A DNA stretch of 64,000 nucleotides from a virus, in IMG/VR virus record IMGVR_UViG_3300014541_000001, positions 9,504 through 73,503 of that record; one strand, 5' to 3'. A program made the position numbers and the translations under genes. Below, in pieces: positions 9,101-48,795 of this stretch (position 1 is the first letter of the stretch; the number at the start of each line of letters is the position of its first letter). A model generated the notes under the pieces. It was not told the DNA's origin, made no database searches, and worked only from the letters and a program-made list of their open reading frames with translations.

Positions 9101-9695
9101 TTAAACAAGCTTTTAAAGCAAAGTAGCTAGCTATAGTAGAAGGTATAGAAGGAGTATTATCCCATCTTCTGATAAAATTACCATGTAAGTCATATTGGAT
9201 TACTGCCTTAAGGTTCTTTCTTCTACCTTCAGCTAACTTATTAATCTCATCCTTACTAAGATTTCTTTTACCTTTCATAGATTTACTCCTTTTCTCCCTA
9301 GTTTCTTTAGACTGCTTAATGCCTAGATGGGAATTTCTCATCTTAAGCTTTGATTCTTCTGTAAATTGTTTACCTTTCATATTTCCTCCACCTTCTCCTC
9401 CTGAACTTATATTGTATAAAGGATGATTTGATTTTAGAAACTTCTTTATGAAGAACCTCTCCAAGCTACATAATACAGTATCAATTCTGCTACTACTGAT
9501 ACCTCTAATAGTAAACAAGATAGAATAGTTAAAGGAATCAAGACCATATTTTCTTATAGCCCTATGAAAAGGAATATTACTTCCTTTTATAGCATCAAAT
9601 AAGTGTCTTTGTTTTCTTTTTCTTTCATGTAATGTTTTACCTATATAGCATCTTCCACTTGGAGATTCATAACAATATATAATTCCTGTGAACAT
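9039..9695 (-). CDS. GIY-YIG homing endonuclease
   Basis: GIIYCYESPSGRCYIGKT (GIY..YIG) N-terminus; basic C-terminal region. Confidence 0.75.
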   Translation of the reverse strand: MFTGIIYCYESPSGRCYIGKTLHERKRKQRHLFDAIKGSNIPFHRAIRKYGLDSFNYSILFTIRGISSSRIDTVLCSLERFFIKKFLKSNHPLYNISSGGEGGGNMKGKQFTEESKLKMRNSHLGIKQSKETREKRSKSMKGKRNLSKDEINKLAEGRRKNLKAVIQYDLHGNFIRRWDNTPSIPSTIASYFALKACLNGYNKTCGGYIWKYERINQT

Positions 9696-36674: not shown

Positions 36675-37091
36675 TTATAAATGGTCTGGATGATTATGTA
36701 TAATCCATTTACATGAGCATACTATAATAAGATGCTGTATGCCTGTGGCTAATAATACACCTATTACTATAATCTGCCAATTAGGTAATGACTCCCAACT
36801 TGACAAGTATATAGCACATAAGAAGAATGTAATCCATGTAGTACTACAATAGATACAATAACCTAAAGGATATGCAATGAATGCTAAGAGGCTTCTACCA
36901 AATGATTTCTCAATGATGTAACCTTTCTCTTCCATATCCTCATAATATTTAGCCCAAGGTTTGAGTATTCCATAGTACAACCAGTTGAATATCATACCTC
37001 TAGGCTTAAGGCAATTCCTGTAGAATATACCTAATAGTCCACCTGCTATACCTAACAGGATAAACTCAATTAATACAGTTATCAGTTCCAT
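36675..37091 (-). CDS. integral membrane protein (4 TM)
   Basis: Hydrophobic segments throughout the 138-aa ORF. Confidence 0.45.
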   Translation of the reverse strand: MELITVLIEFILLGIAGGLLGIFYRNCLKPRGMIFNWLYYGILKPWAKYYEDMEEKGYIIEKSFGRSLLAFIAYPLGYCIYCSTTWITFFLCAIYLSSWESLPNWQIIVIGVLLATGIQHLIIVCSCKWIIHNHPDHL

Positions 37092-37177
37092 TTATTTCCA
37101 CATTTTAAGTTTGCTACCTTTGCATTCAGCTATCAGCATGAACACAACTCCTTTTCTTTTCTGTAATACTTTCATAA

Positions 37178-37426
37178 TTATATGATTTCAATAGTTCTTC
37201 TTCCAAATGCCTTAGGTATTGCTCCTTCAATATCCATAGTTACTGTGGATGTATTAGGTACACCATTAACCAGCACCTTATCCTCATCAGTAAGTGGTGT
37301 GTATGATAGATTTCTAAATAGATAACCACATCTTACACACCAACATACTCCATATTTATTCTGTCTTACCTTATGGTGACCATAAGTACACAGTCTTATT
37401 GCTTTAAGGTATTCATCTTTTGTCAT
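37178..37426 (-). CDS. hypothetical protein
   Basis: 82-aa ORF with CWCVRCG Zn-ribbon-like motif. Confidence 0.35.
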   Translation of the reverse strand: MTKDEYLKAIRLCTYGHHKVRQNKYGVCWCVRCGYLFRNLSYTPLTDEDKVLVNGVPNTSTVTMDIEGAIPKAFGRRTIEII

Positions 37427-37431
37427 TAAAT

Positions 37432-37740
37432 CTATTCTATATTGAATATGATTCTAATTATTCTCTTCCACTTAGATTCTTTATTAGGAATAGGATTAGT
37501 CTTAGTAGCTCTGGCTCCTCCTCTGGTTATTTTTCTGTTAATTAAATGAGAGTCAGACCCAATAGATACAAAACATACTCCTTTGAGATGTCTGTAATAT
37601 CTCTTTTGAATAGATACAGCAGGATGTGTACCTAATTCTTCAGCTATTTCCTCAAATCTTGCTTTAAGATTATAAGGATTTCTTCTGATTCTGTCAACAA
37701 TCAGATTATCTTCCTCTGATGTAAATTTGTTTCTAGTCAT
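37432..37740 (-). CDS. hypothetical protein (Myb/SANT-like HTH?)
   Basis: FTSEEDNLIVDRIRRNP... Confidence 0.35.
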   Translation of the reverse strand: MTRNKFTSEEDNLIVDRIRRNPYNLKARFEEIAEELGTHPAVSIQKRYYRHLKGVCFVSIGSDSHLINRKITRGGARATKTNPIPNKESKWKRIIRIIFNIE

Positions 37741-37772
37741 GATGATTAATGTATTAAAGGATTAATAATAGT

Positions 37773-37813
37773 ATCCCCAACTGGACTCGAACCAGTGTCT
37801 AAGGTAGTAATTG
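37773..37813 (-). pseudogene. 3'-half tRNA fragment
   Basis: ACTGG-TTCGAGT-CCAGT T-arm plus TGGGGAT acceptor 3' strand, with no matching 5' half. Confidence 0.3.
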
Positions 37814-37886
37814 TGGCTCAAATGAGGGTCCAACTCATAACCTTCTCCTTAGGACGGAGCTGCTCTATGCATTGAGCTATTGAGCC
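37814..37886 (-). tRNA. tRNA-Arg(CCU)-like with atypical T-loop
   Basis: Manual cloverleaf: GGCTCAA/TTGAGCC acceptor; D-arm GCTC..GAGC; loop GTCCTAA; T-loop TTGGACC is non-canonical. Confidence 0.5.
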
Positions 37887-38488
37887 TTCAATCTACCAAA
37901 GTATTCACTTTTGCCTTGTGGAGCATTTTTATTTCTGCTACCAAAGTTATCAGTTAAGGAATGACAATTAGGACAAAGTAACTGCAAGTTGTCTTCTTTA
38001 TTGTTAGTAGAATCTCCATCTATATGATGTATCTGTAGTGGTATTAATCCAGTATGAGGGTTAATCTCTGACCATCCACATACTTGACATTTATTATTAT
38101 ACTTCTCCATCATATATCTCCTTATGAATGAGCTGTATGTATATCCTGAAGTACCAGATATTTCTCCATTCTTCCACTTCATTATATTACTCTCATATTT
38201 GTGCCTTGATGCACATTCTATGCTGCAATAATCATGAGGTCTTGATGGTGCACATACAAATTCTCTTCCACAATAGACACAGATTGCTTTATTGGCTGTA
38301 CCTCTGTTGAAGTTTTCATTAGGATTAATAATTCTCCTACTAACAATAGGTATGCCTAGCCTAATAGCAGCTTTCTTTACTCCAGCACCTGTACAGTTGT
38401 ATATTCTACCTATTTGCTCATAACTTAACTTATCCTCAAGTATATACTTGGTTAAGTTCTCTTTTTCATTATTCCATCTCATATTCAA
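37877..38488 (-). CDS. HNH endonuclease with N-terminal sigma-70 region-4-like HTH
   Basis: CQVCGWSE...IHHIDGDSTNNKEDNLQLLCPNCH. Confidence 0.7.
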   Translation of the reverse strand: MNMRWNNEKENLTKYILEDKLSYEQIGRIYNCTGAGVKKAAIRLGIPIVSRRIINPNENFNRGTANKAICVYCGREFVCAPSRPHDYCSIECASRHKYESNIMKWKNGEISGTSGYTYSSFIRRYMMEKYNNKCQVCGWSEINPHTGLIPLQIHHIDGDSTNNKEDNLQLLCPNCHSLTDNFGSRNKNAPQGKSEYFGRLKAQ

Positions 38489-38655
38489 ACTTGTTTTTAA
38501 TTTGTATAAAGATACAAATAATAGTTTGAATATGCAATGGTCTAACTTAACTACTTACCTCCATTCTATCCCTTGACTTATGAGAGCATTTAGTAGTACT
38601 ATCTTCACAGACTATACTACTTAAAACCATTAAAATACAAGTTCTTTATATTTAA

Positions 38656-39114
38656 TTAACCGAAAAGAATCTCTTTATCAAGTTCTGTCAACATCTTGAA
38701 TGCCTTGATAGCACTTTCTTCATCCTTGAAGTACACAATACCTGCATATATTACAGTCTCATGCACGCAGATGCCAAGACTGTTACCCATATCTCTACTT
38801 GTGGTAAATCCTTGTTTTGATTGACCAATGAAGTAGCCTTTGTTATATGGAGTTCTCTTCCAATTCCCATTGAAGTATTTAGCCATTAAACATAATTTGG
38901 CATTAACATCAAATTTATCATGTTCTTCATAAGGAACTGTAACACAAGTAGTAGTGAGATTATTATCACCTAACTGCAACTTAATAGACTCATAAGAGAG
39001 TGCTAACTCCTGCTCTGAATATACTGTCAATGCCAGTTCTTTCAGCGCTTTGTTATTACCATTGAACCAGCATCTTGCTTGCTCAATAGATACTTTGACT
39101 GTTCTTGTTTCCAT
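38656..39114 (-). CDS. hypothetical protein
   Basis: 152-aa ORF. Confidence 0.45.
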   Translation of the reverse strand: METRTVKVSIEQARCWFNGNNKALKELALTVYSEQELALSYESIKLQLGDNNLTTTCVTVPYEEHDKFDVNAKLCLMAKYFNGNWKRTPYNKGYFIGQSKQGFTTSRDMGNSLGICVHETVIYAGIVYFKDEESAIKAFKMLTELDKEILFG

Positions 39115-39147
39115 TATATATTGTTATTAGTTAATTAATAAATATAA

Positions 39148-39177
39148 GGATAGACTATATTCACATACTGTCTATCC
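39148..39177 (-). terminator. perfect 8-bp inverted repeat (GGATAGAC..GTCTATCC), possible terminator
   Basis: Seen directly; the downstream tract is A/T-rich but not a clean U-run. Confidence 0.3.
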
Positions 39178-39203
39178 TATCCCCTTAATATTAACCACAT
39201 AAT

Positions 39204-39620
39204 TCAATCTTTATCACTTAATAATAGGACTGCTGTACCATTGTTGTTATAGATGATTGGTTCATAATTCTCCATCATCCTTAGAAGGTCAGCATTATAT
39301 TGGTTAGCATAATGTGAATTGCATCTCATGGATGTCTTCCACATATCATGTATTATATGATATGTTTCTTCATCCATTGATACAACTTCATTGTCAAAGC
39401 CTGCATCAAGGTCATCATAAATGAGCCAGTAGCAAGATTCACCAAGACTGTTGTGTGATTCCTTCATAGTGATAATATAGTATGGGAAGAATGATGCACT
39501 CTCCCATACTAAACTATCTTGTTTGTCTTCTTGCTGTGATTGAACCTTGCATGATACTATTGTTGTCATCATGGCAACACCTATCAGTGATAACCATAAC
39601 ATTAATCTTATTGCTTTCAT
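39204..39620 (-). CDS. secreted hypothetical protein
   Basis: N-terminal signal-peptide-like hydrophobic segment. Confidence 0.45.
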   Translation of the reverse strand: MKAIRLMLWLSLIGVAMMTTIVSCKVQSQQEDKQDSLVWESASFFPYYIITMKESHNSLGESCYWLIYDDLDAGFDNEVVSMDEETYHIIHDMWKTSMRCNSHYANQYNADLLRMMENYEPIIYNNNGTAVLLLSDKD

Positions 39621-39807
39621 TTGTTATTGGGTTTAAAGAACTAACAGGAGCAATGATGTGCTGATTATCAATCAAGATTATACTTCAATTTTTGCCTATG
39701 ATAAATGCTCCCGTTAGTATGTTATTTACTTAGTTTTCCTTTGAGTAATCCTTTGAGTTTAGCATACTCTTTGGTAAGATGTTCTTGCTTGAAGTCTTTC
39801 GTTGTCT

Positions 39808-40023
39808 TCATGCCTGTCTCCTTTCTCTAAAGGATTTAATCTCTTGCTGTATGTATGACTCAAACTGTTGTAAGTCATCAATTACTCTTGGTTTACTTGT
39901 AATAGCAAGTAATGCAACACTGTTATTGTTGTGTTGCTCTGTCAGGTAATTAATGTGTGCTCTTCTTGATGATGAGTAGTTGCTGCTACTAGCAACAGCT
40001 ACTCTGTTTAATCTCTTTCTCAT
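39808..40023 (-). CDS. hypothetical protein
   Basis: 71-aa ORF. Confidence 0.3.
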   Translation of the reverse strand: MRKRLNRVAVASSSNYSSSRRAHINYLTEQHNNNSVALLAITSKPRVIDDLQQFESYIQQEIKSFRERRQA

Positions 40024-40214
40024 ACTACATTTGTAATGTATCAGGGACTGCCACTATCACTACATTGTTGTAGTTTTCTTTGCATTTCTTTGCCACATCT
40101 TTGGCTTCTTCTTCTGTTGAACACAGATAGAAAGTCTTGTGCCCAAACCTCTTGTTGTCTGAGCATAATACTAGTCTTTTTCTCATGTGATTATGTATTA
40201 ATGGGTTAATGTTT

Positions 40215-40291
40215 TGAGGCTAATAGGAGACTTGAACTCCTAACCTTCCTTTACTCTGCAAGGATGCTCTAACCAATTGAGCTAATTAGCC
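40215..40291 (-). tRNA. tRNA-like gene with apparent 8-nt anticodon loop (GCAGAGTA), anticodon unassigned
   Basis: Acceptor GGCTAAT/ATTAGCC; D-arm GCTC-AATTGGTTA-GAGC; T-arm AGGAG-TTCAAGT-CTCCT; the only 5-bp anticodon stem (TCCTT/AAGGA) leaves 8 loop nt. Confidence 0.45.
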
Positions 40292-40695
40292 TATAGTTTA
40301 TATAAAGACTTGTTGCAATGCTATATGTCACATCAGGTATCTTCTCAATCAAATTAGCTTGATGCTGCTTTCTACTTTTTGATGTATCAGACGGTTCACC
40401 TCACATACTAACTTTGATGTTTAACACACCATAAACTAATACACATTTTTCGGATAGCTTGATACTATTGTCAACCACTATTTGTACATATTTAGCTGGT
40501 CAAAAGCCTTTATTATCTTATTTTATTGGTATACTAGTTCTTGTTTAACACAATTTAATGGCTTGTGTTCAATGACAAATGACTACTATTGTTCATCAGT
40601 TGTCTACCTAAGTGGTACATTGGAGTAAATACTAAAGGGTAAATAATGTTATTATCTAGTGTATTCTTAGTGAGTGGTACTTCAACTGTGAGGAG

Positions 40696-40730
40696 TAAAA
40701 AAGGTAGGAAGGGACATAAGCCCCTTCCCT
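40696..40730 (-). terminator. intrinsic terminator (minus strand)
   Basis: Minus strand: GGGAAGGGGCTTATGTCCCTTCC then TACCTTTTTTAC. Confidence 0.55.
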
Positions 40731-40737
40731 CATTACC

Positions 40738-41052
40738 CTAGAATGCAGCAATCACATTACTGTTAGTCCCTTGCTCATGCAATGTCAGCAAAGTCTTGCC
40801 CTCTTTGGTTCTCACTTCACTGACAACAACAGTCTCAAATGGCTGCTTGGCTACCATTTTAGCAGCCAACTTGTCAGCCACATAGCCAACAATGTTGCCA
40901 CATGCAAAGAAGAACTTGCCCTGTTTATTAGGGGAAGGAATAACTCGCAAAGGTTGGTTACCTTGAGAAGCCTTAACTTCTTCTACAGTCACTGTGTTCA
41001 AGAAATTGGAATCACTGTTGCTAGTAGCAACATACTTTGAAAAATCAATCAT
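40738..41052 (-). CDS. hypothetical protein
   Basis: 104-aa ORF; last gene of the minus-strand block. Confidence 0.45.
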   Translation of the reverse strand: MIDFSKYVATSNSDSNFLNTVTVEEVKASQGNQPLRVIPSPNKQGKFFFACGNIVGYVADKLAAKMVAKQPFETVVVSEVRTKEGKTLLTLHEQGTNSNVIAAF

Positions 41053-41243
41053 GATAGTATGGTTTAATAATTGTGCCGGGGGAATATCCCAAGGCTAAGG
41101 TAAGGGGGAGGAGGAAGAGTGACTTATGCCCCACTCACGTAAATATCACAAATAAAAAATTAAAAAAAAAATTAAAAATAATATGGATACAACACTAATA
41201 AGTTAAACTTTCATAAAAGATTTGGATATGTTATTTATTTTAC

Positions 41244-41254
41244 TTACCTTTGTA
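41244..41254 (+). promoter_or_regulatory. Bacteroidetes-type -7 promoter box TTAccTTTGtA with TTTG about 20 nt upstream
   Basis: First plus-strand promoter motif after the strand switch; about 290-nt leader before the first plus ORF. Confidence 0.4.
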
Positions 41255-41546
41255 CCATGGCGTAGGTCCTCATAGCCTACATCCCCTGTGATATATAACA
41301 AAAAGGAGTTAGCAGGGCAGACAGAGGATTGATAATCTCAAATAGAGATGAAGTTTTCTCCTCTAGCCATAATTAGGGTAAGAATATGAAGATGTCAGTG
41401 ATGCACCAATATGAGTGAGAAAAGGTTGAGGGTAAAGCATCCTAGGGGTAAACCGCCTGACTATAAGTATCTTACTAAAACAGAATAGCCATATTAACAA
41501 CTTAGGGTTTGGCTCCTAGGGATAACTATATAAAAGAAAAAACAAT

Positions 41547-41927
41547 ATGAAGAAGTTTATATTATGGTTGTGGCAATTACCACAGAATATATGTGGTGTA
41601 GTTTATAGAAAAATTATAAAGGATGATATAATAGCTCAAGTCAATACTGACTCAGGATATAACATATATCTGACTGAAACTAATAGAGGTGGAGTCACTC
41701 TTGGGGAGTACATATTTGTGTACCAGAAGTACACAAATATATCAGGAGTTATTCAACATGAGACAGGTCATGTAAAGCAATCAAGAATACTAGGACCATT
41801 GTACTTGTTAGTGATTGGATTACCCTCTATTGTACATGCAACACTACACAGAGTATTATGTAGAAATAATAACTATTATCACTTCTATACAGAGAAATGG
41901 GCTAATAAACTAGCAGGATTAGAATAA
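41547..41927 (+). CDS. small HExxH-motif protein (putative zinc metallopeptidase)
   Basis: VIQHETGHVKQS carries an HExxH motif; 126 aa. Confidence 0.4.
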   Translation: MKKFILWLWQLPQNICGVVYRKIIKDDIIAQVNTDSGYNIYLTETNRGGVTLGEYIFVYQKYTNISGVIQHETGHVKQSRILGPLYLLVIGLPSIVHATLHRVLCRNNNYYHFYTEKWANKLAGLE

Positions 41928-41931
41928 TAAT

Positions 41932-42552
41932 ATGAGAAAAGACTTTATTACAGTTACCCCTGATGGGGGGGAGGTAGGCACTACTGATATTCAAGTAACT
42001 GCTGATGCCAATATAGGAACAGCTCCAAGAAGCACTATTTTAAATCTCACTACTTCAGGTCAAAGTTCAGAACAAGTAGAGATAAATCAGTTGGGAAATT
42101 CATTTCAATTGTTTGTTTTTCCCCATTTTACTTTAGCTACATCTTCTTCATCCATAACACCCTCTTTAACTATAATTTTAGATAGGCTGGATTATGATGA
42201 AGTAGAATTTAGAGGACAAACATTTAATACACCATTTTATGGTGTTCAAACAGTAAGGGGTACAGGTTTAACTATATATGACTTATACCTTGATTTTACA
42301 CTATTATTCTCCATTGATGTTATTAATAAGTTGAAAATAACTAAGTTTTCAGGTCATGTTATCTCTGGTACTGGTAATGCTTTTGATGTAGATTTTCAAC
42401 GACAACAGAGTGAAACTAATTTAGGAGTTAGAGAATTTAGTTTAAGAACAGGTGATATAAGTACATTAAATACTCTACATGAAGTGACCATTTATGCTCA
42501 TATTCAAGGAGGAGAAGTAGTGCAGATATGTAGGATAGAAAATGCTTATTAA
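41932..42552 (+). CDS. hypothetical protein
   Basis: 206-aa ORF. Confidence 0.45.
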   Translation: MRKDFITVTPDGGEVGTTDIQVTADANIGTAPRSTILNLTTSGQSSEQVEINQLGNSFQLFVFPHFTLATSSSSITPSLTIILDRLDYDEVEFRGQTFNTPFYGVQTVRGTGLTIYDLYLDFTLLFSIDVINKLKITKFSGHVISGTGNAFDVDFQRQQSETNLGVREFSLRTGDISTLNTLHEVTIYAHIQGGEVVQICRIENAY

Positions 42553-42605
42553 AACATTATTAACATAATAAATAAGATAAGATTTGCATATCTCAATTAT
42601 TTTAC

Positions 42606-42616
42606 TTACCTTTGCA
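42606..42616 (+). promoter_or_regulatory. Bacteroidetes-type -7 promoter box TTAccTTTGCA for the tRNA array
   Basis: 24 nt upstream of the first tRNA. Confidence 0.5.
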
Positions 42617-42640
42617 GCATCATTCAATTGATGAGTTTAT

Positions 42641-42714
42641 TGCCCCTTGGTGTAATTGGTTAGTCACATAGGATTTTGATTCCTATAGTATCAGTTCAAG
42701 TCTGGTAGGGGTAA
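42641..42714 (+). tRNA. tRNA-Gln(UUG)
   Basis: Manual cloverleaf; loop TTTTGAT; T-arm ATCAG-TTCAAGT-CTGGT. Confidence 0.55.
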
Positions 42715-42720
42715 CATAAT

Positions 42721-42794
42721 GCTCCCTTAGTTCAATGGATTAGAACATTGCTCTTCTAAGGCAAGTGTTAGGGGTTCGAGTCCCTTAGGGAGTA
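42721..42794 (+). tRNA. tRNA-Arg(UCU)
   Basis: Loop CTTCTAA; T-arm AGGGG-TTCGAGT-CCCTT. Confidence 0.65.
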
Positions 42795-42875
42795 CATGAC
42801 TTTGGAATGGATATAAATTGTTTTTGTAATAAAATGAATAGACTAATTGGTCTGTGAAGATAAACTAATCAAAAT

Positions 42876-42949
42876 GGTGGGTTGGACAAATTGGTTAAGT
42901 CACTGCCCTTTCAAGGCAGTCATTAGGGGTTCAAATCCCCTACCCATTA
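42876..42949 (+). tRNA. tRNA-Glu(UUC)
   Basis: Anticodon arm CTGCC-CTTTCAA-GGCAG; T-arm AGGGG-TTCAAAT-CCCCT. Confidence 0.6.
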
Positions 42950-42957
42950 CAAATTTA

Positions 42958-43028
42958 GTCTATGTAGCTTAATGGTTAAAGTGCTGCACTGTCAATGCAG
43001 AGAACAGGGTTCAATTCCCTCATAGACT
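42958..43028 (+). tRNA. tRNA-Asp(GUC)
   Basis: Anticodon arm CTGCA-CTGTCAA-TGCAG; acceptor GTCTATG/CATAGAC. Confidence 0.6.
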
Positions 43029-43083
43029 GCGAGTTTCTACGCCATGAAACAAGTCCTATATTAAGCGTAATATAGGCAGGAAT

Positions 43084-43174
43084 GGAAGAATAAGCCTAAT
43101 GGTAAGGCAGTAGTCTTGAAAACTACTAGTAATCATGTAAAAGTGATGTGTCAGTTCGAGTCTGACTTCTTCCT
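43084..43174 (+). tRNA. tRNA-Ser(UGA), class II long variable arm
   Basis: Anticodon arm GTAGT-CTTGAAA-ACTAC; long variable arm; T-arm GTCAG-TTCGAGT-CTGAC; acceptor GGAAGAA/TTCTTCC. Confidence 0.7.
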
Positions 43175-43176
43175 CT

Positions 43177-43374
43177 ATGATACAGATACTAAGAAAAGAA
43201 GGTTGGATATTAAATCCTAATGATAAGGTAGTAAATGCTATCCTTAAGAGATGTGAGATTAATGATGGTGAATGTCCTTGCCATAATGAAGGAGAAGACA
43301 AACACTGTCCATGTAGTGATTACAGAGAAAAGGATGAATGTCATTGTGGGTTATATGTCAAATTGGAGAGTTAA
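43177..43374 (+). CDS. small Cys-rich protein (CPC..CPC..CHC)
   Basis: 65-aa ORF with ECPCHNEGEDKHCPCSDYREKDECHCG, located between tRNAs. Confidence 0.35.
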   Translation: MIQILRKEGWILNPNDKVVNAILKRCEINDGECPCHNEGEDKHCPCSDYREKDECHCGLYVKLES

Positions 43375-43457
43375 CCTAAGAGGTCTTAGGGACTGCCTGC
43401 TAAGCAGATTGTACCAGTAATTGGTATATGTTTCAAGTACATAGCTCTCCGCATAAT

Positions 43458-43530
43458 ATAGGTGTAATTCAGTTGGTAGAATGCTGGCTTTGGGAGCCAG
43501 TTGCCCTAGGTTCGAGTCCTAGTACCTATA
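43458..43530 (+). tRNA. tRNA-Pro(UGG)
   Basis: Anticodon arm CTGGC-TTTGGGA-GCCAG; T-arm CTAGG-TTCGAGT-CCTAG. Confidence 0.65.
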
Positions 43531-43537
43531 CTTAATG

Positions 43538-43610
43538 GGTCATGTAGTGTAAATGGCTAACACACCATCCTTGCAAGATGGAATTGGGGTTCAAGTCCCA
43601 CATGTATCCA
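43538..43610 (+). pseudogene. tRNA-Ala(UGC)-like gene with non-pairing acceptor/T stems
   Basis: Good D-arm and anticodon arm CCATC-CTTGCAA-GATGG, but the acceptor strands (GGTCATG vs CATGTAT) and T-stem do not pair. Confidence 0.3.
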
Positions 43611-43672
43611 CTTTGTTTTCATGTTTTCATAATGTTTTAGATAGGTTGCCAGTAGCCTTAATACTGGCTAAT

Positions 43673-43746
43673 TGCTTCTTAGTTCAGTGGTTAAGAACAG
43701 CTCTCTTACACAGAGAAGGTCATAGGTTCAATTCCTATAGAAGCAA
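43673..43746 (+). tRNA. tRNA-Val(UAC)
   Basis: Loop CTTACAC; T-arm ATAGG-TTCAATT-CCTAT; acceptor TGCTTCT/AGAAGCA. Confidence 0.6.
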
Positions 43747-43821
43747 CATTTAGACACTACTACAGTTAGCAGTAAATCAGTACATACTGTAGATGTATTG
43801 GTTGAATGGTGTCTATCTAAT

Positions 43822-43896
43822 GGGTTTGAAGCTTAAGTGGTATAAAGCAAAAGACTGTTAATCTTGAGACAGTAGGTTCGAGTCCTACCAAGCCCG
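43822..43896 (+). tRNA. tRNA-Asn(GUU)
   Basis: Loop CTGTTAA; T-arm GTAGG-TTCGAGT-CCTAC; acceptor GGGTTTG/CAAGCCC. Confidence 0.6.
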
Positions 43897-43915
43897 CAGT
43901 TAAATTGGAAGAGTT

Positions 43916-44236
43916 ATGATTGTACAAGTAGAAGATAGAAGTAAGATTAAGAAGGTACACTTTAAACATCCTTACCTCTTTGGTCCAGATGCTGAACAGC
44001 ATGTTATCAATATGTACAAGGATATATTGGAGACAGATGACCAGTTGACCTTAGCAAGGCAATTAGTAAGAGACCTAGAGAAAGAGTTAAAGGAAAAGAA
44101 GGATAAATTCACTGAAATTGAAGCAATGTGTACTATGGAATTTGAGCAAAAGGAAGTGGAACATGTTGATGTAGTTAAGTCTAACATGGCAGTGATTAAT
44201 CCAACAGATGCTAGTAATAGAAACTATACTGGGTAG
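43916..44236 (+). CDS. hypothetical protein
   Basis: 106-aa ORF in the tRNA array. Confidence 0.35.
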   Translation: MIVQVEDRSKIKKVHFKHPYLFGPDAEQHVINMYKDILETDDQLTLARQLVRDLEKELKEKKDKFTEIEAMCTMEFEQKEVEHVDVVKSNMAVINPTDASNRNYTG

Positions 44237-44300
44237 TAGTTTAATGGTAAAACCTTAGTCTCCAAAACTAAATTTAGAGGTTCGATTCCTTTCTACTCAG
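44230..44300 (+). tRNA. tRNA-Trp(CCA)
   Basis: Anticodon arm TTAGT-CTCCAAA-ACTAA; T-arm AGAGG-TTCGATT-CCTTT. Confidence 0.6.
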
Positions 44301-44337
44301 CATTATGTGCATGTCTTCTAATTGGTTAGAAGAATAT

Positions 44338-44414
44338 AGGGACTTATCCCCTCTGTCTGATAAGCAGTTGAAAGGGTAGTTGGTTACAGTTGAGTTCAAT
44401 TCTCAAAGTCCCTA
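44338..44414 (+). ncRNA. tRNA-like element with unresolved cloverleaf
   Basis: Acceptor AGGGACT/AGTCCCT pairs; T-arm TTGAG-TTCAATT-CTCAA; the central 39 nt does not fold as canonical D/anticodon arms. Confidence 0.3.
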
Positions 44415-44416
44415 CT

Positions 44417-45001
44417 ATGATAGATGAAGAAATAAGAAATAACATATTGAACTTATATAGTTCAGGAAAAACTTTGCCTTATATATGCAAGGCTTTAAAA
44501 GTGTCCAAAGCTACAGTATCATATCAGATTAACAAGGCTGGAATCTCAAGATATAGAAACTCTGTGAAGATTACAGAAAAAATACTTGAGGATATGCAAA
44601 GTAGATATGACGAATGTAAAGACTTAAGGATAGTTAGTAAGGAGTTTGGAGTATCAATTAACAGACTAAAGCTTTTAAAGAGAAGACCTTCTCAAACCAA
44701 TTATGAGATATTAAGAAATAGAAGATATAGAATTAAGCAAGAGCTTGTTGAATATAAGGGAGGAAAATGTCAAGTATGTGGATATGATAGATGTCTATCA
44801 GCTCTTGAGTTTCATCATTTAGACCCAGCAAGGAAAGATTTCACTATATCTTCTAATATGAAATATGCTAGTTTAGAGGACTTAAAAGATGAGACAAATA
44901 AGTGTATTTTGGTGTGTTCAAACTGTCATAGAGAAATACATGCAGGAATAGTAAATATAGAAGATATTTCTTACAAAGGTAAGCATGGTTTAGAATCATG
45001 A
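44417..45001 (+). CDS. HNH endonuclease with N-terminal HTH (start set to ATG at 44417)
   Basis: KCQVCGYDRCLSALEFHHLDPARKDF...ILVCSNCHREIH. Confidence 0.65.
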   Translation: MIDEEIRNNILNLYSSGKTLPYICKALKVSKATVSYQINKAGISRYRNSVKITEKILEDMQSRYDECKDLRIVSKEFGVSINRLKLLKRRPSQTNYEILRNRRYRIKQELVEYKGGKCQVCGYDRCLSALEFHHLDPARKDFTISSNMKYASLEDLKDETNKCILVCSNCHREIHAGIVNIEDISYKGKHGLES

Positions 45002-45007
45002 AAGATT

Positions 45008-45080
45008 GTGTAGTTAGCTTAAATGGAATAGAGCACTGGATTGTGACTCCAGAGGATAGGGTTCAACTCCCTGCTACACC
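45008..45080 (+). tRNA. tRNA-His(GUG)
   Basis: Anticodon arm CTGGA-TTGTGAC-TCCAG; T-arm TAGGG-TTCAACT-CCCTG. Confidence 0.6.
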
Positions 45081-45086
45081 CTTTAT

Positions 45087-45160
45087 ACTCACATAGCTCA
45101 GCAGGTTAGAGCAGGAATCTTATACATTCAAGGTCAGGGGTTCAAATCCCTTTGTGAGTA
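45087..45160 (+). tRNA. tRNA-Ile(UAU)
   Basis: Acceptor ACTCACA/TGTGAGT; D-arm GCTC-AGCAGGTTA-GAGC; loop CTTATAC. Confidence 0.55.
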
Positions 45161-45164
45161 CTAT

Positions 45165-45237
45165 CTCCAGTTGTCTGAATGGTTTAGGTCCTAGTCTGCA
45201 AAACTATGGTATGTTGGTTCAAATCCAATACTGGAGT
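45165..45237 (+). tRNA. tRNA-Cys(GCA)
   Basis: Loop CTGCAAA; T-arm GTTGG-TTCAAAT-CCAAT; acceptor CTCCAGT/ACTGGAG. Confidence 0.55.
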
Positions 45238-45239
45238 CT

Positions 45240-45449
45240 ATGGAAGATAAATTAGATAAGATACTGAAGAATCAAGAGATAATTAATAGGAACCAAGTTA
45301 CAATATACAGAGAGTTACTATTAGTTGAATCAAGACTCTTTAAGAGTGAAAGCAAAGAGTTCCTTAGAAACTATTTGGCAGATATAGCAGGTACTATTAC
45401 TGCTGAGTTAGGTCTTGTGGACCTTCTTAATGCTATAAAGAAAGCATAA
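45240..45449 (+). CDS. hypothetical protein
   Basis: 69-aa ORF in the tRNA array. Confidence 0.35.
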   Translation: MEDKLDKILKNQEIINRNQVTIYRELLLVESRLFKSESKEFLRNYLADIAGTITAELGLVDLLNAIKKA

Positions 45450-45523
45450 GTTCCTATAGCTGAATTGGTTAAAGCACCTGTCTCTTAAACAGGGGACTCA
45501 AGGTTCAAGTCCTTGTGGGAACA
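45450..45523 (+). tRNA. tRNA-Lys(CUU)
   Basis: Anticodon arm CCTGT-CTCTTAA-ACAGG; T-arm CAAGG-TTCAAGT-CCTTG. Confidence 0.65.
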
Positions 45524-45543
45524 CATTAACCTTGGCAGGTTTA

Positions 45544-45616
45544 TTCCCCTATAGCAGACAGGTGTAGGCAATTGACTTTTAATCAATGAGGTGAGGTTCG
45601 ATTCCTCATGGGGGAA
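45544..45616 (+). tRNA. tRNA-Lys(UUU)
   Basis: Anticodon arm ATTGA-CTTTTAA-TCAAT; T-arm TGAGG-TTCGATT-CCTCA. Confidence 0.6.
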
Positions 45617-45620
45617 CACA

Positions 45621-45705
45621 TTGAAGTATAACCGGTAATTGGTAGCCGCAAAGACTGTAAATCTTTTCCCTATGGGACTGGGGGTTCGATTCCCTCTACT
45701 TCAAC
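45621..45705 (+). tRNA. tRNA-Tyr(GUA), class II
   Basis: Anticodon arm AAAGA-CTGTAAA-TCTTT; long variable arm hairpin TCCCTATGGGA. Confidence 0.65.
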
Positions 45706-45713
45706 ATTTTAAT

Positions 45714-45788
45714 GGGTACTTGGTGTAGGTGGTTATTGCACGTGGGTCTGAAAAACCCAAGGCTCTGATTCGATTTCAGAAGTTCCCA
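45714..45788 (+). tRNA. tRNA-Phe(GAA)
   Basis: Anticodon arm TGGGT-CTGAAAA-ACCCA; T-arm TCTGA-TTCGATT-TCAGA. Confidence 0.6.
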
Positions 45789-45805
45789 CTTTAAAAATAC
45801 TAAAC

Positions 45806-46252
45806 ATGAAAGAATGTAAGAGATGTCATGTAATAAAGGAAGATAGTGAATTTGCTTTCAGAAACAAAGCAAAGGGTACATTACAACCTTACTGCAAAGA
45901 ATGCAAAAGAGAAATAGATAAGGAACTTTATGACTCAAATCACTCAGATAGAAGAAGAAAAATAAGAGATAGGCAGAATGAAGTTCAGACTAATCTAAAG
46001 GAGCTTTTGACTAATATTAAAAAGAACTCAAAGTGTGCTATATGTGGTGAAAGTAGATGGTGGGTTCTTGACTTTCATCATTTGAGAGATAAAAGATTTG
46101 AGGTATCTTCTTTAGCAAGAAGAGGATGCTCCTTAGAAACTTTCAAGGAAGAGATAAATAAGTGCATAGTAATTTGTGCTAATTGTCATAGAGATTTGCA
46201 CTTCAAAGAGAGTGAGGAATACAATAAATGGGGTAATGAAAAGAGAGCTTAA
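45806..46252 (+). CDS. HNH endonuclease
   Basis: CKRCH...CKEC; KCAICGESRWWVLDFHHLRDK...IVICANCHRDLH. Confidence 0.7.
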   Translation: MKECKRCHVIKEDSEFAFRNKAKGTLQPYCKECKREIDKELYDSNHSDRRRKIRDRQNEVQTNLKELLTNIKKNSKCAICGESRWWVLDFHHLRDKRFEVSSLARRGCSLETFKEEINKCIVICANCHRDLHFKESEEYNKWGNEKRA

Positions 46253-46279
46253 GTTCAATTCTTAGAGTTCCCACATTAT

Positions 46280-46354
46280 GCCCTCTTGGCGGAATGGTTA
46301 AGACGCACTGGATTTAGGCTCCAGATATTATAGGTTCGACTCCTATAGAGGGTA
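46280..46354 (+). tRNA. type-I (short variable arm) tRNA with anticodon UAG
   Basis: Anticodon arm CTGGA-TTTAGGC-TCCAG; 5-nt variable region ATATT; T-arm ATAGG-TTCGACT-CCTAT. Confidence 0.55.
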
Positions 46355-46404
46355 CAATTAACATATTTTATTTGAATAAGTTTGCATAGTTCAGCTATTA
46401 TACA

Positions 46405-46414
46405 TACCTTTGCA
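46405..46414 (+). promoter_or_regulatory. Bacteroidetes-type promoter (-33 TTTG at 46381, -7 TAccTTTGCA)
   Basis: 20-nt spacing between the boxes; 21 nt upstream of ATG 46435. Confidence 0.5.
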
Positions 46415-46434
46415 AACATAATAATAATGACAAC

Positions 46435-46902
46435 ATGGAACCTTTTTTAAGAGGGGGTTTGCTGACACCATTAGATGATGTAAATGTAGTAGCCCCAGCA
46501 AGTAATGAGTTCAATATCTTCCTTCACTTTGTGAATGTACTTGAAGGTATTAAGACACAGATAAAGAATGTACATTGGGCATCACTCAAGTTACCTAATA
46601 GGGACAAGAGAGGAGCACACTTATACCTTGATGACTTTGTAGATATAGTAGGAGACTTTCAAGACACAGTAGCAGAAAGTGCCACTGGTATTACAGGTGT
46701 TTCCTTTGACTTTAATACAGTAAGTGCTATTCCTTTTAATGCTTCATCAACATCAGAATTGATGGAATATGTCAAGAATAAAACTACTGAGTTCTATAAT
46801 AGTTTACCAACAAGTCCTATATATGCTGGTATTAAGTCTGAAACAGAGACTTTTATCAATAATATAGTGATTTATATCTATAGGTTTAGGCTAACTGAAT
46901 AA
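46435..46902 (+). CDS. Dps/ferritin-like protein
   Basis: NVHWASLKL...HLYLDDFVDIVGDFQDTVAESATG resembles the Dps HW..G..F..lH...D...D..AER core. Confidence 0.4.
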   Translation: MEPFLRGGLLTPLDDVNVVAPASNEFNIFLHFVNVLEGIKTQIKNVHWASLKLPNRDKRGAHLYLDDFVDIVGDFQDTVAESATGITGVSFDFNTVSAIPFNASSTSELMEYVKNKTTEFYNSLPTSPIYAGIKSETETFINNIVIYIYRFRLTE

Positions 46903-46903
46903 T

Positions 46904-46980
46904 GGCTCAGTGGTGCAACTGGTGAAGACACAACACTCTTAAACAGTGTAAAGTAAGGGTTCGAGTCCCTTCTGAGTCAC
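46904..46980 (+). tRNA. type-I (short variable arm) tRNA with anticodon UAA; CCA encoded
   Basis: Anticodon arm ACACT-CTTAAAC-AGTGT; 5-nt variable AAAGT; T-arm AAGGG-TTCGAGT-CCCTT; 3' ...CTGAGTCACCA. Confidence 0.55.
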
Positions 46981-46988
46981 CAGCTAAT

Positions 46989-47059
46989 GGATTGGTAGTT
47001 TAATGGTAAAATATCTCTCTTGTAAAGAGCAGTTCACAGTTCGATTCTGTGCCTTTCCT
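46989..47059 (+). tRNA. tRNA-Thr(UGU)-like, weak acceptor stem
   Basis: Loop CTTGTAA; T-arm CACAG-TTCGATT-CTGTG; acceptor GGATTGG/CCTTTCC has two central mismatches. Confidence 0.4.
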
Positions 47060-47255
47060 CAACAAGTTAGTAACTGTCACTCTATTCAGTGAGGCTAACA
47101 CTCCTTGGCTTATAGAGTCTATTTGGTGAGCTGCCACCCACTAGTCCTGCGGAGACTAAATGAAAAAGAGCTATATTAAGATAGAGGCATGAAGGAGAGT
47201 TCCAGCAAAGGGTAAACTGGAAAGGAGTGGTACTACAATCCAAATCCACTCAAAT

Positions 47256-47328
47256 GTAGGTATGGTGTTAGTGGTCAGCATATGACATTGCCAATGTCAA
47301 GGGGTCAGTTCAAGTCTGATTATCTACT
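47256..47328 (+). tRNA. tRNA-Gly(GCC)
   Basis: Anticodon arm TGACA-TTGCCAA-TGTCA; T-arm GTCAG-TTCAAGT-CTGAT. Confidence 0.6.
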
Positions 47329-47332
47329 CAAT

Positions 47333-47403
47333 GCAGTATTGGTGTAATGGTAACATGTCACCCTTCCAAGGTGAATTTGACAGTTCGAATCTGTTATACT
47401 GCT
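47333..47403 (+). tRNA. tRNA-Gly(UCC)
   Basis: Anticodon arm TCACC-CTTCCAA-GGTGA; acceptor GCAGTAT/ATACTGC. Confidence 0.6.
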
Positions 47404-47453
47404 CATTATTGTGGGGAGATTAGGTAATCCAATTAGTCTCATAAGCTAATTAA

Positions 47454-47645
47454 GTGGGGTCGGTACCCACCCCCGCAACACTAATAGAAGAAAATATGAA
47501 GGGAGAAAACAAAATGATGCTACTAATCACTGGTGTAACCATGAGGAGTGTAGTCAATCAAGCAAATGAACTTGGAGTTCAAAAGGAAGATATAGTACAG
47601 TTGTTCCACATAGCAGGGCAAATATATCTGATTTATTACAAATAA
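47454..47645 (+). CDS. small hypothetical protein (true start probably internal, MKGENK or MMLLITG)
   Basis: 63-aa ORF after the GTGGG..CCCAC hairpin. Confidence 0.3.
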   Translation: MGSVPTPATLIEENMKGENKMMLLITGVTMRSVVNQANELGVQKEDIVQLFHIAGQIYLIYYK

Positions 47646-47654
47646 TTTGGCAAT

Positions 47655-47912
47655 ATGGAAGAGAAAATTATTAGAGCAACAGTAAAGGCAGAGCCTAAAT
47701 ACAATGTGGGCAGAACAATTAACCTTGCATCCTATGAAGCTGTTAAAGTATTCAAGAGTGTAAGGAGAGCACAAAGTAGGGGTCATGTAACCCCTTGGGG
47801 AACAATAGCACCTAAGAGACCTTTCAATAATAGAAAGAGAACAGCAGGTAGGGAAGAACAACTTCTAAGAGAAAGAATTTATGGACAAGTTAGAGCAAGA
47901 TACTCAGCATAA
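47655..47912 (+). CDS. hypothetical basic protein
   Basis: 85-aa ORF. Confidence 0.4.
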   Translation: MEEKIIRATVKAEPKYNVGRTINLASYEAVKVFKSVRRAQSRGHVTPWGTIAPKRPFNNRKRTAGREEQLLRERIYGQVRARYSA

Positions 47913-48090
47913 TGAGTATAACAATGAACCAGTAGTTTACTGTAAGAGATGCTTGTCACTTGCCATAAGGACAGAAGATGGTACTGAATATTGTGATAAG
48001 TGTGGTAGTACTGAAATAGAGAGTGCCAATATCTTTGATTGGGAGAAGATGTATGGACAGAAGTATGGTGGTAGTTATTTAAACAAATAA
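47881..48090 (+). CDS. Zn-ribbon protein
   Basis: CKRC...CDKCG. Confidence 0.4.
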   Translation: MDKLEQDTQHNEYNNEPVVYCKRCLSLAIRTEDGTEYCDKCGSTEIESANIFDWEKMYGQKYGGSYLNK

Positions 48091-48095
48091 AGGCA

Positions 48096-48407
48096 ATGGA
48101 AAAAGAAATGAAAGTTGATGCTAATGCACAACATACTGCATGTGATAGTAAAGGATGTAATCAAGAAATGGATTATGGTCAATTGAGAAATGTAGCTATT
48201 CAATTATCAGCTCAGAATCAAGAACTTAGGAAACAAGTTCAAGAGCTTGATATGGCTAACTTCTTTAAGAGACTGGATTACTTATGGGATATTATCCATA
48301 GTACTTCTCCTTATTTATCTGAGGAATTTAAAGTAAAATCGGGTAGAGAATATATGGAAATGATGGCTAAGCCTGAAGTTCCTGAAGAAACAACTGATAA
48401 AGAATAG
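48096..48407 (+). CDS. hypothetical protein
   Basis: 103-aa ORF. Confidence 0.4.
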   Translation: MEKEMKVDANAQHTACDSKGCNQEMDYGQLRNVAIQLSAQNQELRKQVQELDMANFFKRLDYLWDIIHSTSPYLSEEFKVKSGREYMEMMAKPEVPEETTDKE

Positions 48408-48411
48408 AATT

Positions 48412-48795
48412 ATGAGCAAAGGAATTAATAACGTAGTTAGAATTCCTTGCAAGCTAGATAGTAAATTCTTTAGGTATTGGTTTGAGTTCCTACAACCTTT
48501 TCATCATCTTACTGAAAGAGAGATGGATGTGATTACCTCTCTGGTAAAATATAGATATGAACTTAGCAAAGTTATATCTGATAATGAGATACTGGACAAA
48601 GTAACAATGGGAGATGATACTAAGAGAAAAGTAATGGAAGAGTGTGGTATAACTCTTCCTTACCTTCAGGTAATCTTAGGTAAGTTAAAGAAGAACAGGG
48701 TAATAATTGATGGAAAGATTAACCCTAGGTACATACCTAATATTATAGAAGAAAATAATTCATTCAAGTTAATGCTGTTATTTGATTTCTCATGA
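48412..48795 (+). CDS. hypothetical protein
   Basis: 127-aa ORF. Confidence 0.4.
   Translation: MSKGINNVVRIPCKLDSKFFRYWFEFLQPFHHLTEREMDVITSLVKYRYELSKVISDNEILDKVTMGDDTKRKVMEECGITLPYLQVILGKLKKNRVIIDGKINPRYIPNIIEENNSFKLMLLFDFS

Follow-up and report, generated by a model that had tools for sequence, protein, structure and literature searches.

Short-arm leucine tRNA genes within the tRNA array of a crAss-like Bacteroides phage

The tRNA array of a crAss-like Bacteroides phage carries two leucine tRNA genes that lack the long variable arm of class II tRNAs. They lie in a 64,000-nucleotide (nt) stretch of the IMG/VR virus record IMGVR_UViG_3300014541_000001 (positions 9,504 to 73,503 of that record), called the window below, in which ARAGORN finds 24 tRNA genes. 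Both belong to an array of 22 tRNA genes on the plus strand at 42641-47404, called by ARAGORN and Rfam. The first, tRNA-Leu(UAG), occupies 46280-46354 (+) and measures 75 nt up to A73; the second, tRNA-Leu(UAA), occupies 46904-46982 (+) and consists of 76 nt up to A73 followed by CCA. ARAGORN gives their spans as 46280-46355 for tRNA-Leu(tag) and 46904-46982 for tRNA-Leu(taa). Sequence comparison suggests that the two are probably genuine, functional leucine tRNAs that derive from class II tRNA-Leu by loss of the long arm, and the host leucyl-tRNA synthetase (LeuRS) is the enzyme most likely to charge them.

Structure of the two leucine tRNA genes

ARAGORN and Rfam agree with the initial annotation, which was made from the sequence alone, on two short-arm tRNAs with anticodons UAG and UAA, anticodon loops TTTAGGC and CTTAAAC, and variable loops ATATT and AAAGT. 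Against the Rfam tRNA model RF00005, Leu(UAG) scores 60.4 bits (E = 2.4e-11) and Leu(UAA) 54.5 bits (E = 1.1e-9), with the full model matched in each case. Because these scores lie far above the gathering score of 29, neither gene is a chance match. In Leu(UAG), the acceptor stem GCCCTCT/AGAGGGT contains a G1:U72 pair, the D stem has three pairs (GCG/CGC) with G13 and A22 unpaired, the D loop reads AATGGTTAAG, the anticodon loop includes G37, and the T loop is TTCGACT. Leu(UAA) has the acceptor stem GGCTCAG/CTGAGTC with a G2:U71 pair, the D stem GTG/CAC, the D loop AACTGGTGAAG, A37 in its anticodon loop, and the T loop TTCGAGT. Each variable loop is 5 nt long and ends in U48. The CCA that had been read on the UAA gene is indeed encoded, at 46980-46982, and none follows the UAG gene.

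Class II tRNAs have a variable region of more than 10 nt that forms a stem-loop, and the 5-nt loops place both genes outside this class. With a leucine anticodon and a short variable loop, they are type I tRNA-Leu as defined in PMC6614811. No long-arm tRNA-Leu is called by ARAGORN or Rfam anywhere in the 64-kb window, which bears out the absence of a class II form reported from the first reading; the Ser (92 nt) and Tyr (84 nt) tRNAs of the same array have their long arms. Suppressor tRNAs were considered and ruled out, as the anticodons 5'-UAG-3' and 5'-UAA-3' pair with CUA/CUG and UUA/UUG codons and not with stops, and a suppressor would carry CUA, UUA or UCA. Stop-codon recoding is not evident either, as had been noted earlier: the long open reading frames (ORFs) end in TAA 27 times, TGA 9 times and TAG 8 times. 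A BLAST search of 5,426 E. coli genomes with the Leu(UAG) gene, made to find a characterised comparator, returned no match.

Single-sequence folding produces a cloverleaf for Leu(UAG) (z = -1.1), and for Leu(UAA) a minimum-energy fold with alternative D/anticodon pairing in place of the cloverleaf (z = -1.2). Such folding is weakly informative, and the cloverleaf therefore rests on comparative evidence. In an alignment of 24 distinct short Leu tRNAs of the phage family, with three chimeric copies left out, 98.8% of stem cells are paired and compensatory changes on both sides occur in 14 of the 20 pairs. None of 500 shuffles scored as high, and shifted registers pair at no more than 55%. The anticodon stem of the window UAA gene, ACACT/AGTGT here and ACAGG/CCTGT in relatives, illustrates these compensated changes. 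The pattern indicates that purifying selection acts on the cloverleaf.

Leucine identity and charging

The identity of the tRNA bodies was assessed with 20 home-made isotype profiles, trained on tRNAs of unrelated loci, viral and bacterial alike; the anticodon was masked and the variable region removed, so that the body alone was compared. For Leu the training set consisted solely of long-arm tRNAs from outside this phage family, and this profile is the best match to both window genes: 32.9 bits against 25.2 for the next best profile in the UAG gene, and 26.5 against 23.8 in the UAA gene. It also comes first for each of the family's 24 distinct short Leu tRNAs (median margin 12.4 bits), and none of the 162 non-Leu controls is called Leu. 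A mistake in loop phasing, with a non-Leu identity behind it, had been named as the weak point of the initial annotation; ARAGORN, Rfam and the masked-anticodon profiles rule it out.

In E. coli, the leucine determinants are A73, A14, A15:U48, G18G19 and the contacts between D and T loops (PMC9976931; also the introduction of PMC6614811). The E. coli LeuRS requires neither the anticodon nor the long arm, and arm-less variants are still active (PMC9976931; also PMC6614811). Both window genes have A73, A14, A15:U48, G18G19 and a standard TTCGA T loop; with GG in the D loop and TTCGA in the T loop, the contacts G18:U55, G19:C56 and U54:A58 are possible in each. Across the family, U8, G9, A14, A15:U48, A22 and A73 are present in all 27 distinct short Leu tRNAs, the D-loop GG in all but one (the UAA gene of contig L006), and a T loop with TTCGA or TTCAA in all but one. 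Spacing around the D-loop GG varies, with 1-3 nt before it and 3 or 5 after, and is not the same as in some long-arm copies. Arm-less E. coli tRNA-Leu engineered in the laboratory, for which A73 and the D/T-loop tertiary contacts suffice for leucylation (PMC9976931), share the architecture of the window genes, but they are constructs paired with E. coli LeuRS, whereas the phage genes are natural and conserved.

Three options had been left side by side for these tRNAs: missense charging, a non-translational role, and use by the host LeuRS. The last is favoured, given the Leu-type bodies, the slots shared with long-arm Leu genes, the retained determinants and an arm that E. coli LeuRS can do without; the other two are not. 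Missense decoding would mean that a synthetase other than LeuRS charges the tRNAs and places another amino acid at CUR or UUR codons, and this is very improbable. Loss of a class-defining arm could in general alter recognition, and body and anticodon can disagree: in nematodes, certain long-arm tRNAs carry a Gly or Ile anticodon yet receive Leu (PMC3333845). However, the enzymes that charge without regard to the anticodon are the Ala, Leu, Ser and pyrrolysine synthetases (PMC11028032). The alanine determinant G3:U70 is absent, and C3:G70 in both genes rules out Ala; the serine features, a long arm and G73, are likewise missing, and the short loop and A73 argue against Ser. Replacing A73 with G73 shifts leucine identity towards serine (PMC9976931). 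Because neither gene has G3:U70 or a long arm, missense charging has no visible route; in addition, the bodies score as Leu, the long ORFs are ordinary, and their leucine codon use is unremarkable.

If the two genes are functional leucine tRNAs, they would be transcribed along with the other tRNAs of the array, and host enzymes would trim them. The UAG species would have CCA added to it, and the UAA species would already have it encoded. The host LeuRS would then charge both with leucine through A73 and the D-loop/T-loop elbow, including the Leu-typical A15:U48, reading neither the anticodon nor a long arm. The charged tRNAs would decode UUA/UUG and CUA/CUG, possibly all four CUN codons, which are frequent in this AT-rich genome (window GC 35.4%). 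The 44 long phage ORFs of the window comprise 14,075 codons, 1081 of them for Leu, distributed over CUU (31.1%), UUA (28.3%), UUG (15.5%), CUA (12.4%), CUG (8.5%) and CUC (4.2%). UUA and UUG together make up 44% of leucine codons, CUA and CUG 21%. The related phage crAss001 has 34.7% GC compared with 42.5% in its host (PMC6235969). These codon data, taken from the phage side, fit the usual role of phage tRNAs as decoders for A/U-ending codons.

Several points weigh against a working leucine pair. At 2.7 bits, the Leu-profile margin of the UAA gene is narrow, and the home-made profiles are crude, classifying 109 of 162 controls correctly (67%). The Streptomyces type I tRNA-Leu(CAA) could not be charged by E. 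coli LeuRS, whose leucine-specific domain reportedly prefers a large variable loop (PMC6614811); acceptance of short tRNA-Leu is thus enzyme-specific. Moreover, some relatives have a broken chimeric copy in the UAG slot, described below, and the UAG gene can therefore decay without loss of the phage.

Type I tRNA-Leu is already known as a kind, from Streptomyces and from mitochondria, and GenBank has contained homologues of both window genes since the crAss001 record. Nearly every bacterial tRNA-Leu belongs to type II; one exception is the type I tRNA-Leu(CAA) of Streptomyces coelicolor, for which the only LeuRS of the cell is the charging enzyme (Fan et al. 2019, PMC6614811), and a review describes tRNA-Leu as long-armed everywhere except in animal mitochondria (PMC9976931). 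The premise of the initial annotation that every bacterial tRNA-Leu is class II goes too far, in view of Streptomyces and of short Leu tRNAs in at least 120 bacterial loci. The S. coelicolor tRNA resembles the phage pair in its bacterial lineage, its short variable loop and its coexistence with long-arm Leu tRNAs. It differs as a chromosomal housekeeping gene with anticodon CAA, in contrast to phage-borne UAG and UAA genes, and in its identity rules: A73 is not an identity element there and a special LeuRS leucine-specific domain is needed, whereas A73 is invariant in the phage family. The animal mitochondrial tRNA-Leu(UUR) and tRNA-Leu(CUN) also have short variable loops. This mitochondrial pair carries UAA and UAG anticodons, as the phage pair does. 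In human mitochondrial tRNA-Leu(UUR) the identity elements are A73 and A14, and charging proceeds with no long arm present (PMC9976931). Unlike the phage tRNAs, with their canonical elbow (G18G19, TTCGA) and their need for a bacterial host enzyme, the mitochondrial ones belong to organelles, often have a loose structure, and rely on a mitochondrial LeuRS that has co-evolved with them.

Relatives and neighbours of the array

The array region matches crAss-like Bacteroides phages of the family Steigviridae, subfamily Asinivirinae: crAss001 and its PhiCrAssBcn relatives, DAC15/17, 'tikkala', cr112_1 and cr126_1. GenBank labels the homologous genes in those phages simply 'tRNA-Leu', and the order Phe, Leu(UAG), DpsA-like ORF, Leu(UAA), Thr, Gly is conserved. 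With the ORF at 46435-46902 as a tRNA-independent anchor, 28 IMG/VR contigs were collected, 25 of them with tRNAs. In these contigs and the cultured relatives taken together, a single UAA gene departs from the short form (75-79 nt). Most UAG genes are short as well (74-76 nt), the long ones (85-90 nt) being those of L001, L005, L006, L020, L026 and L029; carriers of the long-arm copy are crAss001, cr126_1 and four IMG/VR contigs. Both Leu genes are short in DAC17, tikkala and the window, and crAss001 combines a long-arm UAG gene of 90 nt with a short-arm UAA gene of 79 nt.

Long and short alleles have sequence in common. The window UAG gene and crAss001's long-arm gene (t18, 90 nt), which has the same slot and anticodon, agree at 64 of 75 positions. 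The agreement takes in the acceptor stem, G1:U72 included, and the whole anticodon arm, and the differences fall in the variable region and T arm. The window UAA gene has its D arm and T arm in common with the long-arm UAG genes of cr126_1 and L006. Phage T5 was considered as a model phage with a short Leu tRNA and ruled out: its tRNA-Leu(UAG) of 85 nt has a 13-nt variable region and is class II. The T5 gene shares the anticodon and sits in an array alongside HNH endonuclease genes, but both it and crAss001 t18 differ from the window genes in having variable arms of 13-19 nt instead of 5 nt.

A chimeric copy occupies the Leu(UAG) slot of cr112_1 (L004, 5006-5081) and four IMG/VR contigs (L023, 151-226; L025; L028; L024, 2268-2343). 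Its 5' half comes from the crAss001 long-arm allele and its 3' half from the short allele of 'tikkala', with the junction inside the anticodon loop. Pairing is lost at two positions of the anticodon stem and at two of the acceptor stem, and in L024 the anticodon has changed to TAA. From its sequence, the chimera looks like a recombination scar and a dying gene.

Such copies in cr112_1, L023, L025, L028 and L024 raise the prospect that the two window genes are themselves poor or dead substrates, either relics near loss or non-translational RNAs (decoys, primers, regulators) in tRNA shape. A neighbouring Met-like gene with a defective T loop and the rejection of a type I tRNA-Leu by E. coli LeuRS point the same way. 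The window copies, however, are fully paired, and their homologues show the compensatory substitutions described above. U8, A14, A15:U48, A22 and A73 are invariant and the D-loop GG is nearly so; the UAA form is short almost throughout the relatives, and the anticodon of each slot is conserved in at least 30 contigs. A decoy would need no conserved discriminator base, anticodon or encoded CCA. This makes dead or non-translational genes an improbable account, and functional leucine tRNAs remain the favoured one.

Just beyond the array, at 47410-47478 (+), lies a tRNA-Met(CAT)-like sequence that both ARAGORN and Rfam missed. It has an intact acceptor stem (TGTGGGG/CCCCGCA), the loop CTCATAA and an aberrant T loop (GTCGGTA), and its slot, after Gly(UCC), holds a 70-72-nt tRNA-Met in the relatives L007, L008 and DAC17. 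The sequence is either a decaying or an atypical Met tRNA. The earlier statement that no tRNA-Met is present holds insofar as neither program calls one anywhere in the 64-kb window, and needs qualifying for this sequence.

Three ORFs of the array, all on the plus strand, deserve mention. The 155-aa ORF between the Leu genes (46435-46902) has a homologue in crAss001, Gp7, annotated 'putative DpsA protein', and gives no Pfam match. A 148-aa ORF just upstream of Leu(UAG) (45806-46252) has weak matches, below Pfam cut-offs, to HNH/His-Me finger endonucleases; with CxxC...HH...CxxCH motifs visible in its sequence, it is probably such an enzyme. A second HNH/His-Me finger candidate, again weak and below Pfam cut-offs, lies within the array at 44390-45001. 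Homing endonucleases accompany tRNA arrays (PMC8421152), and such enzymes could drive the swapping of alleles observed among relatives. In being dense and accessory, with homing endonucleases nearby and divergent tRNAs, the array resembles the long tRNA arrays of bacteria, plasmids and phages (PMC4758250, PMC8421152, PMC12803027).

Between tRNA-Thr and tRNA-Gly(GCC) lies a 195-nt insert (47061-47255, +) that is 99% identical in L006 and L008, far better conserved than the adjoining ORF (88-90% amino-acid identity). It is absent from L007, where the Thr-Gly gap is 5 nt. A structured RNA was considered for this insert and rejected, with no fold signal (z = -0.18) and no Rfam match. Outside the array and on the opposite strand, a tRNA at 40216-40291 (-) scores 53.5 bits with Rfam and has an 8-nt anticodon loop, GCAGAGTA; ARAGORN labels it 'tRNA-?(Ser|Leu)(agag)'. 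No close relative was found among cultured phages, and it could be a four-base decoder or a defective gene. Other Rfam families within 37000-48500 gave sub-threshold chance matches only.

Distribution of short leucine tRNAs and the role of the arm

Two scans, one of viral contigs and one of bacterial and archaeal genomes, with a pattern that combines a Leu-like D arm (TGGCG-NAA), a TAR anticodon and class I anticodon-to-T-loop spacing find short Leu tRNAs in at least 120 viral and at least 120 bacterial loci, mostly inside tRNA arrays. Such collection scans are biased samples that give lower bounds, not frequencies; moreover, contigs assembled from metagenomes and labelled 'bacterial' may in some cases belong to phages, and some labelled 'viral' may be bacterial. 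Among the matches listed, to which the viral and bacterial details below refer, ARAGORN confirms Leu tRNAs of 73-78 nt in nearly all viral loci. Isoacceptors outside the pattern (CAA, GAG, CAG, AAG) are short there too, and in some viral arrays of 30-42 tRNAs every Leu isoacceptor is short. The viral short Leu tRNAs comprise 126 distinct sequences in 93 clusters at 82% identity, with A73 in 113 of 126 and A15:U48 in 125 of 126, U48 not being imposed by the pattern. Further cases, from cultured phages that are not crAss-like, include a Leu(UAG) with a 7-nt variable loop in Gordonia phage Fryberger and, in Xanthomonas phage X1, a Leu(CAG) with a 5-nt loop adjoining a long-arm UAG gene. The short form is the majority in this subfamily of abundant human-gut phages, to which the cultured crAss001, DAC15/17 and 'tikkala' belong, and widespread in other phages and in bacterial tRNA arrays, not the rarity that the initial annotation implied.

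Arm loss depends on the isoacceptor among these viral matches. In contigs L034-L153, a pattern-biased sample, 95 Leu(UAG) genes are short and 4 long, against 31 short and 36 long Leu(UAA) genes; the combination of short UAG and long UAA is found in many phages. The G1:U72 wobble pair atop the acceptor stem, which the pattern does not impose either, occurs in 17 of 27 short Leu tRNAs of the crAss family and in 59 of the other 126 short ones from viruses; long-arm copies of phages have it as well.

The bacterial matches include many cultured Flavobacteriales (Chryseobacterium, Flavobacterium, Zobellia, Tenacibaculum and a complete Pontimicrobium chromosome), as well as Acidobacteriota, Planctomycetota, three Streptomyces assemblies, each with a single short Leu(UAA) gene, and others. 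Most lie in dense arrays, with a median of 8 tRNAs per 8-kb locus and at least 10 tRNAs in 50 loci. In many of the cultured Flavobacteriales, arrays of 10-19 tRNAs within about 2 kb contain short Leu(UAG) and Leu(UAA) genes, for example L252 on the Pontimicrobium chromosome (1,304,001-1,312,000).

The other long-arm tRNAs of these arrays behave differently. In the ORF-anchored relatives, 52 of 59 Leu tRNAs are short, and all 15 Ser and all 14 Tyr tRNAs are long; over all loci pooled, the long form accounts for 146 of 147 Ser and 102 of 107 Tyr tRNAs. Seryl-tRNA synthetase (SerRS) and bacterial tyrosyl-tRNA synthetase (TyrRS) depend on the long arm. That SerRS and TyrRS need the arm and LeuRS does not would explain why Ser and Tyr tRNAs of the same arrays stay long, and tRNA-Leu would be the only class II tRNA able to lose it. 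The contrast is as known identity rules predict.

Why the arm was lost is a further question, and one answer, compatible with functional leucine tRNAs, is that its loss is a selected counter-defence trait. Short Leu tRNAs would then translate yet escape host effectors that recognise class II tRNAs by the long arm, keeping leucine decoding alive when the host tRNA-Leu is disabled. Their presence in diverse viral contigs, as the 93 clusters attest, and in accessory bacterial arrays, against the long-armed tRNA-Leu of cells (PMC9976931), is consistent with such selection, as are the short and long copies with the same anticodon found at one locus in L042, L044 and L102 (viral) and in L169 and L271 (bacterial). 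Phage tRNAs are documented to resist tRNA-targeting defences, and PMC12803027 discusses tRNA array units as putative anti-defence elements. A 2026 preprint further reports that the abortive-infection toxin AbiEii probably prefers long-arm class II tRNAs, like MenT3. On the other hand, no Bacteroides effector is known to target tRNA-Leu through its arm, although no search for one was made here. A neutral account, in which an arm dispensable for LeuRS is lost by mutation and genes become compact, explains the contrast of Leu with Ser and Tyr equally well, and long and short UAG alleles coexist in close relatives without a visible correlate. Counter-defence is thus a tentative explanation, rather unlikely on this balance. 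The bacterial Schlafen defence nuclease was also considered as an arm-specific threat and set aside: its reported targets include Lys, Ala and Met tRNAs, which it cuts in the anticodon arm, and class II tRNAs are not preferred.

A broader version of this idea, which is doubtful, would make arm loss a recurrent, selected hallmark of phage and mobile-element tRNA arrays that gives immunity to arm-reading effectors, for example nucleotidyltransferase toxins of the AbiEii/MenT3 type. If it were true, Leu alone among class II tRNAs could use the trick, bacterial LeuRS not needing the arm, and cells would have some use for the arm of tRNA-Leu apart from charging.

Keyword searches of the array papers PMC8421152 and PMC12803027 turned up nothing on short-arm tRNA-Leu, and no description of it in phages or tRNA arrays was found in the full-text literature, which leaves subscription-only papers outside its coverage; the broad pattern in phages and arrays has apparently gone unremarked. 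The two window genes themselves are, in their likely function, ordinary leucine decoders and not evidence of recoding. With a long-arm UAG gene and a short-arm UAA gene side by side in a culturable system, crAss001 offers a natural experiment on the purpose of the arm.

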